Below, one piece after another: positions 4,191 through 23,668 of a stretch of DNA of 24,000 nt. Under the pieces are notes generated by a model that saw nothing but the letters and a program-made list of their open reading frames with translations, ran no database searches and was not told the DNA's origin. Origin of the DNA: an uncultured Candidatus Saccharibacteria bacterium (GTDB taxonomy: Bacteria; Patescibacteriota; Minisyncoccia; Portnoybacterales; GCA-002795985); the NCBI GenBank assembly GCA_964474765.1, contig CAYYTW010000012.1, positions 1 through 24,000 of the forward strand, written 5' to 3'. The translations under genes and the position numbers were made by a program. Position 1 is the first letter of the stretch. Every line of letters begins with the position of its first letter.

Positions 4191-4203
4191 TCAATAATTA
4201 ATC

Positions 4204-4257
4204 TAATTATTCTAATTAACCTAATTTCTAATTAAATCCCAAACTCCAATTACCAAT
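4204..4257 (+). repeat. AT-rich intergenic repeat, copy A (downstream of the ychF stop)
   Basis: Contains cctaatttctaattaaatcccaaa (4220-4243), which is the exact reverse complement of 5179-5202. The flanks match partially. Confidence 0.85.
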
Positions 4258-5019: not shown

Positions 5020-5126
5020 AAATTTCTAATTTTTAATTCACCCAATAAAATGACCAATAATCAAACCAGAATATCGAATAAATAACCAATATCCAATATC
5101 CAAATTGTGGCTTGAGTATTTTTTCG

Positions 5127-5163
5127 CCCGCCCGCAACGCTTCGCGTAGCAATGCGGGCAGGG
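5127..5163. repeat. GC-rich nested hairpin in the uppS-pcm spacer
   Basis: cccgcccgca (5127-5136) pairs with tgcgggcaggg (5153-5163) with one bulge. An inner hairpin acgc-ttc-gcgt lies at 5137-5147. AT-rich repeat arms flank it. Confidence 0.6.
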
Positions 5164-5164
5164 A

Positions 5165-5212
5165 ATTCGGGATTGGGATTTGGGATTTAATTAGAAATTA
5201 GGTAATTAGGTG
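5165..5212 (-). repeat. AT-rich intergenic repeat, copy B (inverted, upstream of pcm)
   Basis: tttgggatttaattagaaattagg (5179-5202) is the perfect reverse complement of 4220-4243. The flanks add about 7 nt on one side (with a 1-nt indel) and a degenerate match on the other. Confidence 0.85.
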
Positions 5213-5263
5213 AATTTGGAATTATTTCATGTTGTTTAATAGTTTGCGCCTTGAATTTATTTT

Positions 5264-5986
5264 ATGAGCAATGATTTCTTGATAAACAATCTTATTGAGC
5301 AGGGCTATCTCAAAACCTCCCGAATTATCGGGGCTTTTCGCAAGATCGACCGCCTTGATTTTGTGCCTGATAATTTAAAATCAGAGGCCTACGAAGATAT
5401 ACCATTGCCGATTGGCTGCGGCCAGACGATTTCGCAGCCGGCAACGGTTGCTTTTATGCTGGAGTTGCTGGAGCCGCGGGCGGGTGATAAAATTTTAGAT
5501 ATTGGTTTTGGTTCGGGGTGGACCACGGCGTTGATGGCGGAGATAGTGTCTTCCTCCGTCATTCTGAGTAAGGGCGAGTATTGCGAGCCGAAGCGAAGAA
5601 TCTCTGGTATGAAATCCTTCGGGCTACGCCCTCGGGACGACAGAGAGGAAGGTTCTGGCAAAGTCTGCGCCATTGAGCGGATTTCGGAATTGTGCGAGCT
5701 CGGCAAGAAAAATATTGAAAAATACGATTTTCTCGCTTCGGGGCGGGTTGAGTGTCTTTGTGCCGATGGAACGAAAGGGTGGGCGGGAAGAGCGCCGTTC
5801 GATAAAATTTTGGCTGGCGCCTCGGCTCATAAATTACCGTTGGCTTGGAAAGAGCAATTGAAAATCGGTGGTCGAATCGTGGCGCCGATAGAATGGAGCG
5901 TTTGGTTATTCATCAAAAAGAGCGAGACGGAGTTTGAGGAGATTGAGCATCCGGGATTCTCGTTTGTGCCGTTAATAAGCGACTAG
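5264..5986 (+). CDS. pcm: Protein-L-isoaspartate O-methyltransferase carrying an in-frame insertion of about 33 aa
   Basis: GQTISQPATVAFMLELL, SAM motif I ILDIGFGSGW and PFDKILAGA. The extra segment SSSVILSKGEYCEPKRRISGMKSFGLRPRDDREE lies between motif I and the expected G.GKV.AIER strand. Confidence 0.85.
   Translation: MSNDFLINNLIEQGYLKTSRIIGAFRKIDRLDFVPDNLKSEAYEDIPLPIGCGQTISQPATVAFMLELLEPRAGDKILDIGFGSGWTTALMAEIVSSSVILSKGEYCEPKRRISGMKSFGLRPRDDREEGSGKVCAIERISELCELGKKNIEKYDFLASGRVECLCADGTKGWAGRAPFDKILAGASAHKLPLAWKEQLKIGGRIVAPIEWSVWLFIKKSETEFEEIEHPGFSFVPLISD
5549..5650 (+). repeat. GC-rich rod-like palindromic element inserted in frame in pcm
   Basis: Nested inverted repeats: 5558-5568 pairs with 5631-5641, 5572-5576 with 5627-5631, and 5586-5593 with 5617-5625 (one bulge). 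The core is cattctgag...cgaagcgaagaatc. Confidence 0.75.
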
Positions 5987-5998
5987 AGAAACAATATA

Positions 5999-6040
5999 AC
6001 CTCCCCTCCTCAGTCGAGGAGGGGATTGGGGGGAGGAGGT
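5999..6040 (+). promoter_or_regulatory. Pyrimidine tract (anti-SD-like ACCUCC) with two alternative purine partners; the second is a perfect AGGAGGU
   Basis: Stem A pairs 6003-6011 with 6016-6024 (9 bp, tetraloop agtc). Alternative stem B pairs 5999-6010 with 6028-6040 (12 bp, one bulge, two G-U) and covers aggaggt at 6034-6040. Confidence 0.45.
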
Positions 6041-6058: not shown

Positions 6059-7063
6059 ATGGAACAACCGCGCGTACAACGAACAACAGAAATGCCGGAA
6101 GATTTTAAGTTGATTAGAGAAAATCTTTTAAGAGAATTTTCTGGAAAGAACGTTGAGGGCATTAACACTAAAAGAGCGGAAGAATTTATCAAAAAAGAAG
6201 GAATGGAAGTTAAGCCTTATGTTATTATTGAAAAAGGGGATTTGCCGAAATTACAGGAGATTGTTGGTGATTCGGAAAGTTTTAAGAGACACATTGAAGA
6301 GGGCGGCTTGGGAGTTTATGCCGCAGGGATAGATCTGGCTATTGTCTTTAGGGATGGGAATTATGAAGGGATAAATGGAGAAATTTTTACGGAAAGGTTT
6401 CTCGTGCATGAATTGGCGCACGCGAGCAGCAAGCACGGGGTTTATACTTCCGAACCCGGGTTTAATGATTTTCCGACGGTCTTGAGAATCGGTTTTTGCT
6501 TGCGTTCAGAGCAAAAAAACGGTTCCTGGGGAGAATTAATCGAGGAAGGTTGGGCCGAAATGCAGAGTGCTAATTATTTCGCCCGGTATGCCACTAAAGA
6601 AGATAAGGAGCGGCTCGAATCGATTTTGAAGCTCGGGTCCCTAGGTGTGAATGATACTATTCCAACTGGTATGTTTCTTGATGTACCAATGGTAAATGTT
6701 GGCGTTGGCGAGCCCCTACCGCTTCCGCTAAAGTATATTTTTTTGAATCCCGAAGGAAGACTGTCTGTAGCGAGGGCGGCCTTTGCCGGTTATGCCTTGG
6801 AAATACTTTGCCAGAATAATCTGTCTTTGGCACCGGCAATGATTGAGGCGCGAAAATCCCTCGGGGGATTGAGGAAATTTGCCCGAACCTTGTGGGAAAC
6901 CTCACCCGATTTATATAAGACTTTGCAGACCAGTGATTATTCGGCAAGAGGGTTTCGCAAAAAGCTGGAGGTGGTTATTAATAAAGTCGGCGGCGGCGTT
7001 GAAAAAGTAATTAAGGCAAGAGGGCCGCTAAAAGATAAGTGGGATAAAATTTTAAAGAAATGA
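6059..7063 (+). CDS. Hypothetical cytoplasmic HExxH (gluzincin-like) protein
   Basis: 334-aa ORF with no signal peptide. It has FLVHELAHASSKHG and a downstream acidic EEGWAEM about 45 aa later that could supply a third zinc ligand. Its stop overlaps the mltG start (ATGA at 7060-7063). An alternative start at M12 (6092) is possible. Confidence 0.6.
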   Translation: MEQPRVQRTTEMPEDFKLIRENLLREFSGKNVEGINTKRAEEFIKKEGMEVKPYVIIEKGDLPKLQEIVGDSESFKRHIEEGGLGVYAAGIDLAIVFRDGNYEGINGEIFTERFLVHELAHASSKHGVYTSEPGFNDFPTVLRIGFCLRSEQKNGSWGELIEEGWAEMQSANYFARYATKEDKERLESILKLGSLGVNDTIPTGMFLDVPMVNVGVGEPLPLPLKYIFLNPEGRLSVARAAFAGYALEILCQNNLSLAPAMIEARKSLGGLRKFARTLWETSPDLYKTLQTSDYSARGFRKKLEVVINKVGGGVEKVIKARGPLKDKWDKILKK

Positions 7064-8088
7064 AAAACATCATGCGAAGGTTGATTTTATACATTGTTTC
7101 TGTAATGGTGTTGATTTTAGTTATTGCCGCGGGCGGGTTTTTTTATGTTTATCATCGAATCCAGACACCGGCGGCAATGGTGGGGGAAAACAGGCAGATC
7201 ACTATAGAAAAAGGGTTGAGTATCAAACAGATCGCCGCCAGATTAGAGGGCGATGGTTTAATTAACAGCGTCTTTTATTTTGAAACCTATGTTTATTTTG
7301 AGGGAATCAACAGCTTGCAGGCTGGTGATTATGTGTTAAATCCATCCATGAGTATCCCCGAGATAGCCACGGCTTTGTCTGGCGGTTTGGTGAATCGCGA
7401 TGAAGTGCGCGTGACCATTCCCGAGGGTTTTACGGTTAAGCAAATAGATGAGCGGCTGGCGCAATTCGGCCTAATAAAGCCCGGCGAACTTCTCAACTTT
7501 GATGCTGGTCCTTTTTTGCCGCAGCCGCTCGGGTCTAATGGTTATCACAGACTCGTGTCGGAGGAGGAGGGGTATCTTTTTCCCGACACCTACATTTTTG
7601 ATAGGAATTCTTCGGCAAAGGATATCTGGCAGAAAATGTACGACAATTTCAATAAAAAGGTTGCTTTCGAGATGCTTACGGAAATTTTAGGCCAGCGGCG
7701 ATCCCTGTATGATATTGTCATCTTGGCGTCTATTGTCCAGCAAGAAGCTTCGATAACCGAAGAGATGCCGAGAATTGCCGGCGTGTTTTATAACCGGCTG
7801 GCAATTAACATGCCTCTGCAGTCCGACGCCACTGTCAATTATATAACCGGCAAGGGTATGCGCCGGGCTTCAATGGAAGACACTAAAATAGATTCGTCGT
7901 ATAATACCTATAAATACAAGGGTTTGCCGCCCGGCCCGATTTGCAACCCCGGGCTCGATGCCATCATGGCCGCCATTTGGCCCGAGAAAAGCGATTACTA
8001 CTATTTTCTCCATCCTCTTAACGCCCCGACGGTTTTCAGTAAAACCGAGGCGGAGCATCGGGCGAACAAAGCGAAGTGGCTGGAATGA
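7060..8088 (+). CDS. mltG: Endolytic murein transglycosylase MltG (YceG-like)
   Basis: N-terminal TM helix, then LASIVQQEA, GVFYNRL, PLQSDATVNY and YNTYKYKGLPPGPICNPG, ending in ANKAKW. This is the classical YceG pattern. Confidence 0.9.
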   Translation: MKNIMRRLILYIVSVMVLILVIAAGGFFYVYHRIQTPAAMVGENRQITIEKGLSIKQIAARLEGDGLINSVFYFETYVYFEGINSLQAGDYVLNPSMSIPEIATALSGGLVNRDEVRVTIPEGFTVKQIDERLAQFGLIKPGELLNFDAGPFLPQPLGSNGYHRLVSEEEGYLFPDTYIFDRNSSAKDIWQKMYDNFNKKVAFEMLTEILGQRRSLYDIVILASIVQQEASITEEMPRIAGVFYNRLAINMPLQSDATVNYITGKGMRRASMEDTKIDSSYNTYKYKGLPPGPICNPGLDAIMAAIWPEKSDYYYFLHPLNAPTVFSKTEAEHRANKAKWLE

Positions 8089-9830: not shown

Positions 9831-9864
9831 AAAAACAAGTTTCAAAGTAACTAAGTTATTTTGT

Positions 9865-9933
9865 GTCGTAATTTCCATTTTGACCGGTCTCGCAGAATTA
9901 TTTTGCGTAGCCGGCGGATGGAAATTCCGCGAC
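9865..9933 (+). promoter_or_regulatory. Structured 5-prime leader stem-loop of the giant gene
   Basis: aatttccat (9870-9878) pairs with atggaaatt (9918-9926), and gtcg (9865-9868) pairs with cgac (9930-9933). An inner helix pairs ccgg/cgca (9884-9894) with tgcg/ccgg (9904-9914). Confidence 0.4.
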
Positions 9934-9943
9934 GCGTGAAATT

Positions 9944-17677: not shown

Positions 17678-18595
17678 ATGGCCGCTGCCTTTAATGATTT
17701 TATATATGGAAGAATATGGAAGAATATGGAACAGAAGATTTCTAACAAAAAAATATTGATGATTATCGCCTTCCGCGATTTTAAAGACGAGGAGTATTTT
17801 ATCCCGCGGGAAATTTTGCAACGCCCATCCGTAGCCTTGCGCGAAGGAGGGGAGAAGGCGGGGGCGAAGATAACAGTTGCCAGCGATAAAAAGAGTGTAG
17901 CATTGGGCGTCAGCGGAGGAGAGGCGGTCGTGGATTTAACATTTAAAGAGGTTAATGTTGACGATTTCGACGCCGTTGTTTTCATCGGCGGGCCGGGGGC
18001 GCGGAAATACATTGAAAACTTGGAGTGTCATCGAATAGCGCGAGAGGCGGTTGAAAAAGACAAGATTTTGGCCGCTATCTGCATCGCGCCAGCCATTTTA
18101 GCCAAGGCCGGAGCGCTGAACGGAAAAAAAGCGACTGTCTGGTCGAGCCCGATGGATAAAACCGCAATAAAAATTTTAGAGGAAAACGGCGCGAAATATA
18201 TGAAAGAGCCAGTGGTGGTTGATGGAAAAATCATTACTGCCAATGGGCCAGAAGCGGCAGGGGAGTTTGGGGATAAGTTATTTGAAAGTGTTGACAGCCG
18301 GGCAATAAAACACATATACTACAGCTATATGGCAAAAAAGATTACTTTGGACAATTTGGCGGGAATGATAAAGTGTGGTTTTGATGGTATGGATAAAAGA
18401 TTTGGCGAAATAGAAAAGAGGATGTCTACTATGGAGGCGCGACTTTCTAATCTCGAGGTTGGTCAGGAAGACATAAAATTAAGGCTGGACAATGTTGCTT
18501 ATAGATTTGAAATTGTCGAATTGCAAAAACGCGTAGACTTTTTAGAAAAAATAATTTTGCCCAAAGCAAAAAAGAGCGATCCGGTGTTAAAATAA
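17678..18595 (+). CDS. DJ-1/PfpI family protein fused to a C-terminal coiled-coil module of about 90 aa
   Basis: DAVVFIGGPG, nucleophile elbow LAAICIAPAIL and VVDGKIITANGPEAA. From aa 218 the sequence is MAKKITLDNLAGMIKCGFDGMDKRFGEIEKRM followed by heptad-rich sequence. The start may be ATG 17726 (MEQKISNKKILMII) rather than 17678. Confidence 0.8.
   Translation: MAAAFNDFIYGRIWKNMEQKISNKKILMIIAFRDFKDEEYFIPREILQRPSVALREGGEKAGAKITVASDKKSVALGVSGGEAVVDLTFKEVNVDDFDAVVFIGGPGARKYIENLECHRIAREAVEKDKILAAICIAPAILAKAGALNGKKATVWSSPMDKTAIKILEENGAKYMKEPVVVDGKIITANGPEAAGEFGDKLFESVDSRAIKHIYYSYMAKKITLDNLAGMIKCGFDGMDKRFGEIEKRMSTMEARLSNLEVGQEDIKLRLDNVAYRFEIVELQKRVDFLEKIILPKAKKSDPVLK
17704..17731 (+). repeat. 10-nt tandem repeat (atatggaaga, 2.8 copies) at the 5-prime end of the DJ-1 gene
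   Basis: Perfect 10-nt periodicity from 17704 to 17731. It creates ATGs at 17706, 17716 and 17726, of which only 17726 is in the DJ-1 frame. Confidence 0.85.
18291..18320 (+). promoter_or_regulatory. Near-consensus sigma-70-type promoter inside the DJ-1 fusion ORF
   Basis: TTGACA (18291-18296), an 18-nt spacer and TATACT (18315-18320). The in-frame ATG at 18329 lies 8 nt after the -10. Confidence 0.35.
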
Positions 18596-19346: not shown

Positions 19347-19431
19347 GTTTGATAATCAAGTTTCAAGAATCGCCGAACAATAATTGCTTTTCGGCAATGT
19401 GCTTCGGTGGATAAAAGTCAAATTAAACAAT

Positions 19432-19499
19432 AGCTACGAAATACGAAAAGGTACGAATATACGAAAACGTATTTGTATATTCGTAAATCATTCGTAGCT
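19432..19499. repeat. 68-nt AT-rich palindrome with TACGAA repeats in the rplJ-rplL spacer
   Basis: The outer stem pairs 19432-19440 with 19491-19499 (9 bp). The inner stem pairs 19452-19462 with 19475-19485 (11 bp). TACGAA occurs at 19435, 19442, 19452 and 19460, and TTCGTA at 19480 and 19491. Confidence 0.8.
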
Positions 19500-19512
19500 C
19501 GTAGAGAAACTT

Positions 19513-21838: not shown

Positions 21839-23668
21839 ATGTGCGGAATAGTCGGATACATCGGAAAGAATAAGGCCTATCCTATTTTAATGGATGGGTT
21901 AAAGAGGTTGGAGTATCGAGGTTATGATAGCGCCGGTTTCGCGGTGGCGGAGAACGGCGGAGTCGCGATGCTCAAAGCCGTCGGCAGAGTGGGGGAATTA
22001 GAAAAGCAAGTCGGTAATCGTGATTTTTCGGGAACAGCCGGAATTGCTCACACGCGTTGGGCAACTCACGGCAGACCGTCAAAAGAAAATGCCCATCCGC
22101 ATACCGACTGCCGCCAGGAAATTTTCCTGGTTCATAACGGGATTATCGAGAATTACAAAGAATTGAAGGAAAGCCTGAAAAAGCGTGGGCACCGATTTTC
22201 TTCGGAAACTGACTCGGAGGTTGTCGCGCATCTGATAGAAGAGTATTATCAGGAAGACTGTTTGGAAGAAGCGGTACGGAAAGCTCTTTTAAAAGTAGCG
22301 GGAACTTATGGCATAGCGGTCTTGAGCCGACGGGAGCCGAATAAGATTGTTGCCGCTCGCAAAGGCAGCCCGTTGATTTTGGGAGTCGGCAAAGACGAAT
22401 TTATTATTGCTTCTGATGTGGCGGCGATCATTCGCTACACCGATAGAGTGGTTTATTTGAACGACGGCGAGATGGTCGTGGTTAGCCGCGATGGCTACGA
22501 AGTAAGCAATTTGGAAAGAATCAGAATTGATAAGCGCGTCGATCGGGTTGATTGGAGTATTGAAGAAGCGGAAAAACAGGGATTCGCGCATTTCATGCTG
22601 AAAGAAATTTTTGAGCAGCCTGAGGCGATTGGAAACGCGATTCGGGGCCGCGTCTTGTCCACTGATGGCAATGCCAAGCTGGGCGGACTCGAAGATGTCA
22701 GGGAGCGTTTGAAAGAAATAAATCGGCTGGTCATTGTCGCCTGCGGCACGGCGTATTATGCCGGTTTGGTCGGTAAATATATGCTGGAAGAATACGCCGG
22801 GATTCGCGCCGATGTTGAATATGGTTCGGAATTTCGCTACCGAAAGCCGATTTTAGATTCTAAAACCGCGGTTCTGGCTGTTTCTCAATCCGGTGAAACG
22901 GCTGATACTTTGGCGGCGGTCAGGGAAGCGAAGAATAAAGGCGCGTTAGCTCTGGGCATTGTTAATGCCGTCGGTTCGACTATTGCCCGCGAAACCGAGG
23001 CCGGAATTTATAATCACGCCGGGCCGGAAATCGGCGTGGCCTCAACCAAGGCGTTTACTTCTCAGTTGGCTATTCTAGCGTTACTAACCGTTTTTCTGGG
23101 TCGCCAGCGACAAATGTCTTGCGTGATGGGAAAAAGAATTCTTAATGAATTGGCCGAAATAAAAAATTATATCAAGGCGATTCTGAAACAGGCGAAAGAG
23201 ATAGAAAAAATCGCGCGGAAATATTTCGGATTTTCCAATTTCCTATATCTCGGCCGAAAGTATAATTACCCGATTGCCCTTGAAGGCGCGCTCAAAATCA
23301 AGGAAATCGCTTATGTTCATGCCGAGGGTTATCCTTTCGGCGAAATGAAACATGGCTCAATTGCCTTGATCGACGAGGAATTTCCTTCAGTCGTCATTGT
23401 TACCAAAGATAGCGTTTATGAAAAAACGATTTCCGGCGTTCAGGAAATCAAAGCGCGAGGCGGAAAAATTATCGCTATTGCCACAGTTGGGGATAAAGAG
23501 ATAAAAAAACTGGTTGATGATGTCATCTATATCCCCAAAACTTTAGAAATGCTGACGCCGCTGATTTCTGTTGTTCCTCTCCAGCTGTTAGCTTACTATT
23601 TCGGCGTTCAAAAAGGTTTAGACGTGGATAAGCCCCGCAACCTTGCCAAAAGCGTGACGGTTGAATAG
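21839..23668 (+). CDS. glmS: Glutamine--fructose-6-phosphate aminotransferase (isomerising)
   Basis: MCGIVGYIG Ntn-amidotransferase start, HTRWATHG, two SIS domains (SQSGETADT) and the C-terminal PRNLAKSVTVE. A strong RBS GAAGGAGGG lies upstream. Confidence 0.95.
   Translation: MCGIVGYIGKNKAYPILMDGLKRLEYRGYDSAGFAVAENGGVAMLKAVGRVGELEKQVGNRDFSGTAGIAHTRWATHGRPSKENAHPHTDCRQEIFLVHNGIIENYKELKESLKKRGHRFSSETDSEVVAHLIEEYYQEDCLEEAVRKALLKVAGTYGIAVLSRREPNKIVAARKGSPLILGVGKDEFIIASDVAAIIRYTDRVVYLNDGEMVVVSRDGYEVSNLERIRIDKRVDRVDWSIEEAEKQGFAHFMLKEIFEQPEAIGNAIRGRVLSTDGNAKLGGLEDVRERLKEINRLVIVACGTAYYAGLVGKYMLEEYAGIRADVEYGSEFRYRKPILDSKTAVLAVSQSGETADTLAAVREAKNKGALALGIVNAVGSTIARETEAGIYNHAGPEIGVASTKAFTSQLAILALLTVFLGRQRQMSCVMGKRILNELAEIKNYIKAILKQAKEIEKIARKYFGFSNFLYLGRKYNYPIALEGALKIKEIAYVHAEGYPFGEMKHGSIALIDEEFPSVVIVTKDSVYEKTISGVQEIKARGGKIIAIATVGDKEIKKLVDDVIYIPKTLEMLTPLISVVPLQLLAYYFGVQKGLDVDKPRNLAKSVTVE

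Follow-up and report, generated by a model that had tools for sequence, protein, structure and literature searches.

The stretch of DNA analysed here (hereafter 'the window': 24,000 nucleotides of contig CAYYTW010000012.1, from an uncultured bacterium of the Candidate Phyla Radiation [CPR]) carries pcm, the gene encoding protein-L-isoaspartate O-methyltransferase (Pcm). In frame within this gene lies an extra segment of 108 nt that its closest orthologues lack. It consists of two repetitive extragenic palindromic (REP) units in inverted orientation, now decayed, each of the form (C/T)GTC-ATTCYGAG-[variable hairpin]-GARGAAT-CTC. The host gene, the segment and its parts, with coordinates of the window, are as follows.

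5264 to 5986, forward strand: pcm, the host gene (240 aa; Pfam PCMT, E = 2.8e-52)
5549 to 5656, forward strand: extra segment relative to empty-site orthologues, 108 nt or 36 codons (SSSVILSKGEYCEPKRRISGMKSFGLRPRDDREEGS) replacing the usual three codons (G-E-K), placed by alignments and a coordinate check
5550 to 5556, forward strand: pyrimidine tract CTTCCTC, which pairs with 5645 to 5651 and lengthens the palindrome past the REP heads
5557 to 5604, forward strand: left REP unit, with tag C-GTC (5557 to 5560), head ATTCTGAG (5561 to 5568), internal segment (5569 to 5594), and tail GAAGAATCTC (5595 to 5604)
5605 to 5610, forward strand: spacer TGGTAT between the two inverted units
5611 to 5642, reverse strand: right REP unit, inverted; read on the forward strand as GAAATCCTTC (5611 to 5620), hairpin GGGC-TAC-GCCC (5621 to 5631), CTCGGGACGAC (5631 to 5641), and A (5642)
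5645 to 5651, forward strand: purine tract GAGGAAG, partner of the pyrimidine tract

The extra segment of pcm and its structure

Matches of the window Pcm to Pfam PCMT and to Pcm proteins of the PDB both fall in two stretches, the alignments stopping at residues 97–99 and restarting at residues 132–134. The interruption falls after the helix that follows S-adenosylmethionine (SAM) motif I and before strand beta-2. When 30 sequences were aligned, EIVG-x-x-GK in the nearest relatives corresponded to EIV-SSSVILSKGEYCEPKRRISGMKSFGLRPRDDREEGS-GK in the window protein, and EIVG-EK-GK is the commonest loop sequence among the listed Pcm homologues (5,155 were found, of which the best 120 were examined). 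With 108 nt standing where orthologues hold 9 nt, the net gain is 33 codons. A preliminary description of this DNA had claimed 33–34 extra codons in an intact frame; the PDB, Pfam and orthologue alignments bear this out and place the boundaries at 5549–5656, the frame being open through the insert and all downstream Pcm motifs being kept.

The left unit fits the family pattern GTCATTCYGAG-N-GARGAATCTY, with an internal segment of 26 nt as opposed to the 6–7 nt of the commonest form. The right unit, identified by a loose-pattern scan of the reverse strand and a check of its pairs, gives a TGTC tag on that strand (the reverse complement of 5639–5642). Measured against the ancestral architecture, the window copy has kept 10 of the 11 positions of the outer stem (two of them as G-T), eight of the ten of the inner stem, all four of the right hairpin, and all seven of the flanking CTTCCTC/GAGGAAG. 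The pairings already listed in the preliminary description are those of the minimum-free-energy fold of the forward strand (save for a slip by which base 5631 was used in two pairs), and the core that it had singled out, cattctgag...cgaagcgaagaatc, is located at 5560–5568 and 5591–5604.

Folding of the insert (105 nt) was compared with that of 200 dinucleotide shuffles. With RNA parameters, the z-score is -2.0 for the forward strand and -4.3 for the reverse strand (0/200 shuffles); with DNA parameters, the corresponding values are -0.6 and -1.9, and the insert does not rank with the window's strongest hairpins. By itself, the window copy beats its shuffles by only a moderate margin. In the same test, the inserts of four other pcm loci (L001, which is orthologous, L003, L124, and L125) are clean palindromes with z-scores from -3.2 to -7, and their conserved blocks recur in hundreds of copies elsewhere; the case for a palindromic element in the window stands mainly on this comparison with other copies. 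The strongest DNA hairpins of the window are found at 19411–19510, where a near-perfect, TACGAA-rich palindrome stands between rplJ and rplL, and at 9841–9940, where a long hairpin stands just upstream of an open reading frame (ORF) for a surface protein of 1,549 aa.

An ordinary lineage-specific loop that evolved in place, its palindromy being coincidental, would agree with the weakly palindromic character of the window copy when this copy is folded alone with DNA parameters. Such an origin is nonetheless extremely improbable: blocks of 11 nt and 10 nt are common to the segment and to a family of which unrelated genomes contain hundreds of copies, the dimer at the orthologous locus L001 is clean, and near-identical pcm alleles exist with and without such an insert.

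Filled and empty pcm genes

The Pcm of a Candidatus Portnoybacteria metagenome-assembled genome (P0002; GCA_002795985.1, locus L001) is 82% identical to the window protein outside the loop. Its insert occupies the same place, is of almost equal length, and has a much cleaner structure than the window copy, reading TGTC-ATTCTGAG-[26 nt]-GAAGAATCTC-GTCCGT-GAGATCCTTC-GGCCTACGGC-CTCAGGATGAC (or, in block order, GTCATTCTGAG..GAAGAATCTC..GAGATCCTTC..CTCAGGATGAC), in which GTCCGT is the counterpart of the window spacer. Because the unusual 26-nt internal expansion is common to both, the two copies descend from one event. Their right hairpins (GGCC-TAC-GGCC in L001 and GGGC-TAC-GCCC in the window) differ by a compensatory double change, both parts of which are synonymous.

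A short canonical form, GTCATTCCGAG-CGAAGC-GAGGAATCTT...AAGATTCTTCG-[hairpin]-CTCAGAATGAC, is found in P0009 (locus L003) and, like the L001 insert, carries TGTC tags. Four further homologues (P0022, P0043, P0090 [L124], and P0025 [L125]) have inserts of a sister type, GTCATTGCGAG...CTCGCRATGAC, the folds of which are strongly significant (z-scores from -5 to -7). Each of the three C-type pcm inserts opens with a TCN-rich tract. No insert is present in the closest relatives of the window Pcm (P0003–P0007 and P0012; 77–85% identity with the loop masked), and insert-bearing Pcm proteins are scattered among empty ones in a neighbour-joining tree with the loop masked, a tree of ~200 residues that is poorly resolved.

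The alleles P0009 (filled) and P0015 (empty), each of which recurs in several samples, are almost identical in DNA sequence. Where P0015 has the 9 nt GGCGAAAAA, P0009 has 105 nt, composed of a 12-nt Ser-rich linker, an 84-nt dimer (GTC...GAC), and 9 further nt. Over the 340 nt that follow the loop, the two alleles differ at a single base, located 4 nt past the insert; upstream they are nearly identical, with differences 16 and 25 nt before the insert. A search for a target-site duplication or direct repeat at the junctions of P0009 relative to P0015 found none. Simple deletion of the insert would not restore the empty consensus, because the 9 nt are missing from the filled allele. The P0009 insert was either gained together with a small replacement or imported as a patch from another pcm allele, and the pattern of differences between the two alleles would be compatible with a short recombination tract.

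The patchy spread of the inserts might accordingly be ascribed to homologous recombination, a few old pcm insertions having been passed on as a cassette with the motif I and beta-2 flanks as arms; this account competes with insertion de novo only over the step of acquisition. Several observations fit it: the 9 nt of the filled/empty pair were replaced rather than interrupted, without target duplication; the downstream difference between these alleles and two upstream ones lie within 25 nt of the insert; P0001 and P0002 share one insert, yet are not sisters in the masked tree; and a Ser-rich linker of 9–12 nt after a Val codon opens all five REP-type pcm inserts. The inserts differ, however, in head type (GTCATTCYGAG versus GTCATTGCGAG), internal hairpins, spacers, and the frame of the right arm, so that at least three or four separate origins would still be needed, and the tree is poorly resolved. 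We view spread by recombination as possible, albeit doubtful.

The repeat family and its relatives

Members of the family were sought with the pattern GTCATTCYGAG-N(6-26)-GARGAATCTY in viral_contigs and with a stricter dimer pattern in genome_contigs. At least 120 matches were obtained in each of the two scans, and the matches listed come from more than 15 phyla, CPR among them. The hosts in genome_contigs comprise Omnitrophota, Acidobacteriota, Chloroflexota, Bacteroidota, Planctomycetota, Nitrospirota, several proteobacterial classes, Clostridia, Cyanobacteria/Melainabacteria, Rickettsiales, and Helicobacter, as well as the CPR groups Komeilibacteria, Saccharibacteria, and Doudnabacteria. 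The consensus of the unit is (T/C)GTC-ATTCYGA-G[variable segment]C-GARGAAT-CTC, with GCGNAGC as the most frequent sequence inside it. The 182 distinct internal segments have a mean of 2.16 terminal Watson-Crick pairs (0.41 when shuffled). Among 82 dimers of other genomes, T precedes GTC in 80% and C does so in 16%; the flanks of the family are weakly G-poor upstream and weakly C-poor downstream.

The preliminary description had suspected a dispersed repeat family on account of peptides such as VILSEAKNL. The dispersal is real across the collections, with one copy in the window, and the peptide fits: the commonest unit, GTC ATT CTG AGC GAA GCG AAG AAT CTC, translates to VILSEAKNL. A full-text literature search for the DNA strings returned primers and vector sequences only, and literature searches by topic found no paper on such inserts in CPR.

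Most copies in the genome sample are intergenic, eight of 127 dimers being situated in open frames that reach at least 60 codons on both sides. Dimer length in this sample has a median of 82 nt and shows no excess of multiples of three (28 of 102). In the viral sample, approximately one quarter are situated in such frames; many of these are on contigs of high GC content, where chance produces long open frames. As read from the sequence, each arm has TGA in one of its three frames, and therefore only some insertions can be read through. Intragenic survivors such as the pcm copy of the window are uncommon.

Conservation of the unit's 21-nt core extends over more than 15 bacterial phyla and to putative phage contigs (loci L004–L123 from viral_contigs and L130–L249 from genome_contigs). 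Some contigs carry four to six copies of the unit (L057, L046, L041, and L034), a Pedobacter locus (L138) has four dimers in tandem, and several phage contigs (L045, L075, and L093) have a single unit directly upstream of a ribosome-binding site and start codon. Three other candidate copies (L002:3241–3286 and window positions 23316–23383 and 22344–22366) were rejected as chance resemblances in ordinary coding sequence, with no partner arm and at least two mismatches per block.

Di Nocera, De Gregorio and Rocco (2013; PMC3733652) described a superfamily of CGTC/TGTC-tagged REPs. In these, the terminal CGTC tag is unpaired and often changed to TGTC or CCTC, the stem has complementary A-T residues at its first and second positions, the unpaired tail is short, and inverted dimers are frequent. 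The same authors assigned Rickettsia RPE-4 and RPE-6 and Neisseria dRS3 to this superfamily and reported that REPs of both superfamilies are known in frame within genes, where dimers encode 20–30 residues, and that CGTC REPs have no dedicated transposase (PMC3733652). The window element carries the tag in both arms (C5557-GTC on the left and TGTC on the right). Its left stem begins with ATTCT (5561–5565), which pairs with AGAAT (5597–5601) at all five positions; in other copies of the family, this stem start is given by the construction of the pattern. The likeness comprises an unpaired (C/T)GTC tag, a stem starting A-T, T-A (ATTC...GAAT), a short tail that stays unpaired, inverted dimers that can fold into a single long hairpin, no known dedicated transposase, and, across the collections scanned, a mostly extragenic location, with a minority of copies in frame in genes and coding for 20–30 or more residues.

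The families CGTC-1 to CGTC-4 have an uninterrupted stem of 8–9 bp, a loop of 4–5 nt, and a tail that is mostly CCA (PMC3733652). In contrast, the stem of the pcm-type unit has a tandem G-A/A-G interruption, its inner hairpin varies from 7 to 30 nt (most commonly GCGNAGC; 26 nt in the window), its tail is CTC, and its tags face outward in the dimer. The host range of more than 15 phyla, including CPR, compares with five phyla reported previously (PMC3733652). Since the window unit does not have the stem and loop dimensions described for CGTC-1 to CGTC-4, we treat it as a further family of the CGTC superfamily.

A dimer that does fit the CGTC-1 description (TGTC-ATTCCCGC-GAAA-GCGGGAAT-CCA) is located at the pcm-yceG junction of L124 (6613–6685), where its translation (SFPRKRES...DSRFRGND) appears as a spurious extension of the YceG N-terminus. 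Another dimer of that contig, of the GTCGTTGCGAG type, is in frame within yceG (7117–7203).

Rickettsia palindromic elements (RPEs) resemble the pcm element in being palindromic repeats in frame in still-functional genes, in a reduced genome with little intergenic space (as summarized in PMC3733652). RPE-4 and RPE-6 are CGTC-tagged, and their in-gene peptides CHSRESGNP and DSRFRGND are counterparts of the HSE... and ...ND readings of the pcm-type unit. RPEs differ, however, in having the stem ATTCCCGC...GCGGGAAT and in being defined within Rickettsia, whereas the host here is a CPR bacterium (Parcubacteria/Portnoybacteria-like) and one enzyme loop holds several repeat families across lineages. 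Membership was rejected on the evidence of the intragenic peptides of R. conorii (PMC3733652 supplement), which imply stems of the ATTCCCGC type and not ATTCYGAG. By analogy, the pcm element would work like an RPE (i.e. in frame and tolerated) without being one.

The REPIN/RAYT system also has two inverted REP units separated by a short spacer, ~60–120 nt in total, that form a long, non-autonomous hairpin. Its tag is GTAG, whereas the tag here is (C/T)GTC, and its doublets are mobilised by RAYTs, tyrosine transposases similar to those of IS200/IS605; no transposase domain (RAYT included) was found in the 20 ORFs of the window, and we rejected membership for both reasons. Bacterial MITEs (miniature transposable elements with inverted repeats; e.g. 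Correia/NEMIS and the MITEs of Coxiella [PMC5896051]) are likewise small, non-coding palindromes that can land in genes and add peptide segments. They differ in having terminal inverted repeats derived from insertion sequences (ISs) and target-site duplications: the P0009/P0015 pair has a 9-nt replacement and no duplication, and terminal repeats of the IS type are lacking. For these reasons, only half of the label 'MITE/REP-like' used in the preliminary description can be retained, the element being a CGTC/TGTC-tagged REP dimer and not a MITE.

Probable tolerance of the insert and occupation of the loop

AlphaFold2, run with the 30-sequence alignment, models the window Pcm, insert included, with a confident core and a disordered insert: the mean predicted local distance difference test (pLDDT) score is 88.5, the core exceeds 90, and residues 97–132, between helix 86–96 and strand 133–138, form a coil with pLDDT values of ~47–53. 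In Rossmann-like methyltransferases, the cofactor is bound at the C-terminal edge of the strands, and a helix-to-strand loop is therefore on the opposite face. Between the window and L001, the non-synonymous (dN) and synonymous (dS) divergences of the insert are 0.26 and 0.65 (omega = 0.40), compared to 0.12 and 1.15 (omega = 0.10) for its flanks; judged by this pair, the insert peptide appears to be weakly constrained and to evolve faster than the rest of pcm. The family is dispersed, the closest orthologues lack the insert, the helix-to-beta-2 loop is modelled as disordered, and constraint on the peptide is relaxed, all of which supports the earlier suggestion that the element is tolerated in a surface loop.

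We consider it probable that the segment is a selfish or neutral insertion, i.e. an inverted pair of CGTC/TGTC-tagged REPs (RPE-like) in a Pcm loop, translated as a disordered loop. Entry of the pair into the loop that joins helix alpha-A, which follows SAM motif I, to beta-2 would have taken place in an ancestor shared with the Portnoybacteria CG11 lineage, either by de novo insertion or as part of an insert-bearing patch from another pcm allele via homologous recombination. The insert would persist because its length is a multiple of three, because the frame used avoids the TGA of the arms, and because the loop is on the side of the sheet away from the SAM/substrate site. Transcribed and translated with pcm as a disordered surface loop of ~36 residues, it would be without a demonstrated role of its own, and it is probably old and eroding in the window lineage.

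Several points weigh against a selfish or neutral insertion. The window has a single copy of the family, and ~103 kb of related CPR contigs, chosen for their pcm inserts, add few others (in yceG of L124, in the pcm-yceG spacer of L124, and as an intergenic unit of L128); neither numerous copies in this genome nor recent movement gains support from this. When metagenome_contigs was scanned with the spacer of the L003 element to find its siblings, two more pcm copies and none outside pcm were returned, and no recent burst of transposition is documented. The filled allele replaces 9 nt and has non-palindromic flanks of 12 and 9 nt, which is not what simple insertion predicts. The lower dS of the insert and the compensatory change of its right hairpin hint at some constraint on nucleic-acid structure, albeit in one sequence pair and with small numbers. 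Finally, we infer rather than observe that the insert is translated, and the same applies to its harmlessness and its route of entry.

The hint of structural constraint raises the question of whether the palindrome is kept as a working nucleic-acid structure in the pcm transcript or antisense to it (e.g. as a processing or stability hairpin or as a pause in translation that separates the two halves of the fold), with the peptide as a by-product. Consistent with such a role are the folding with RNA parameters, which beats shuffles most clearly on the reverse strand, the change from GGCC/GGCC to GGGC/GCCC between L001 and the window, the reduced dS relative to the flanks, and the argument that many REPs act as RNA elements (PMC3733652). 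Against it, pairs have been lost from both long stems of the window copy, which is indistinguishable from shuffles with DNA parameters; close orthologues manage without the insert; unrelated sequences, including non-palindromic A-rich ones, fill the same loop in other lineages; both compensatory changes are synonymous and come from a single pair of sequences; and there is no Rfam match. A function of this kind therefore seems improbable to us.

Post-transcriptional or post-translational removal in the manner of an intron or intein, leaving a mature enzyme with a normal loop, has nothing direct in its favour; the element is structured and falls precisely where one element of secondary structure ends and the next begins. 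It matches no family of ribozymes or introns, even at E <= 1: Rfam searches of the window and eight canonical-copy loci at the gathering score, and of positions 5450–5750 at E <= 1, returned only an unrelated tRNA in L024. Promoter-like and terminator-like sites were also looked for within the insert, and none were found. Moreover, 108 nt is far below the sizes of self-splicing introns, and the 36 residues, of low complexity, have no intein motifs. Every recovered pcm insert is a multiple of three and stop-free, compared to 28 of 102 intergenic dimers that are multiples of three, an argument weakened by the fact that the inserts were found via full-length protein matches. The alternative raised in the preliminary description, removal or regulation at the RNA level, is thus without support, and excision from the mature enzyme can be given almost no credence.

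If the segment is a tolerated insertion, as we favour, it is one of many in this position. Numerous members of the best 120 of the 5,155 Pcm homologues carry extras in the same loop, of at least four structured kinds and an A-rich kind. The loops of CPR orthologues (P0022–P0119; loci L124–L128) hold unrelated inserts, among them a hairpin of the type GCCCGCAATGCTTCGC...GCGAAGCAGGCGGG (L127:10268–10363), a tandem palindrome rich in TCTCCCCC/GGGGGA (L128:2470–2592), and an A-rich non-palindromic tract coding for NSKSEIRNPKQIQNSKF-like peptides (L126:5482–5571), which represents a large group and also occurs in shorter derivatives. The simplest reading is that a permissive loop has received inserts many times over in a very large and varied set of streamlined genomes, with some allelic exchange. 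A bolder proposal, which we regard as unlikely, is that the loop joining alpha-A to beta-2 serves in CPR Pcm as a landing pad used again and again, in which at least five kinds of intergenic-type repeat module (two REP head types, a GCCCGCAAYGCTTCGC-type hairpin, the TCTCCCCC/GGGGGA tandem palindrome, and an A-rich AAATCCGAAAT tract) have been captured in frame and exchanged between alleles.

Repeats of other types are found near pcm in the window. A GC-rich intergenic hairpin at 5126–5165 has GCCCGCAAYGCTTCGC in common with the pcm insert of L127, and AT-rich arms of the CCAAAT type (4196–4257 and 5165–5226) form a 62-nt inverted repeat, 74% complementary, around uppS. These intergenic repeats add at least two further repeat types to the window, outside genes. 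In L131, a REP dimer is flanked by AT-rich arms like those around uppS. Just 3' of the pcm stop codon, a G+C-rich hairpin (CCTCCCCTCCTCAGTCGAGGAGGGGA; 5996–6030) has no T-run on the forward strand, and the terminator scan calls it on the reverse strand only. Farther downstream, yceG (7060–8088) is separated from pcm by an ORF of 334 aa (6059–7063) without a Pfam match, which was considered as yceG and ruled out; in all related loci fetched, yceG directly follows pcm, unlike in the window. A DJ-1/PfpI protein encoded at 17678–18595 has 305 aa, compared to 180–214 aa in related loci, with the domain at residues 24–203 and an unexplained C-terminal extension of ~100 residues.

In-frame palindromic repeats in genes are already known from Rickettsia and a few other bacteria, and the superfamily has been described. 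What is new is the extension of the phenomenon to the Candidate Phyla Radiation and the presence of several kinds of repeat at one loop. Knowledge of Pcm function is unchanged by the insert. The VILSEAKNL-like peptides of 'hypothetical proteins' from CPR and groundwater can now be tied to one REP superfamily across many phyla, and for annotation this means that such protein stretches, and short ORFs made of them, should be taken as repeat-derived. Should the loop be a landing pad after all, streamlined genomes would have an active route, either site-preferring or driven by recombination, for turning repeat DNA into protein segments, and recognition by a conserved host or mobile factor would account for the near-universal presence of the same 21-nt REP core across more than 15 phyla. 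The filled and empty pcm alleles, together with the multiply occupied loop, constitute a natural experiment on the movement of REPs without a known transposase and on the conversion of repeat DNA into protein.

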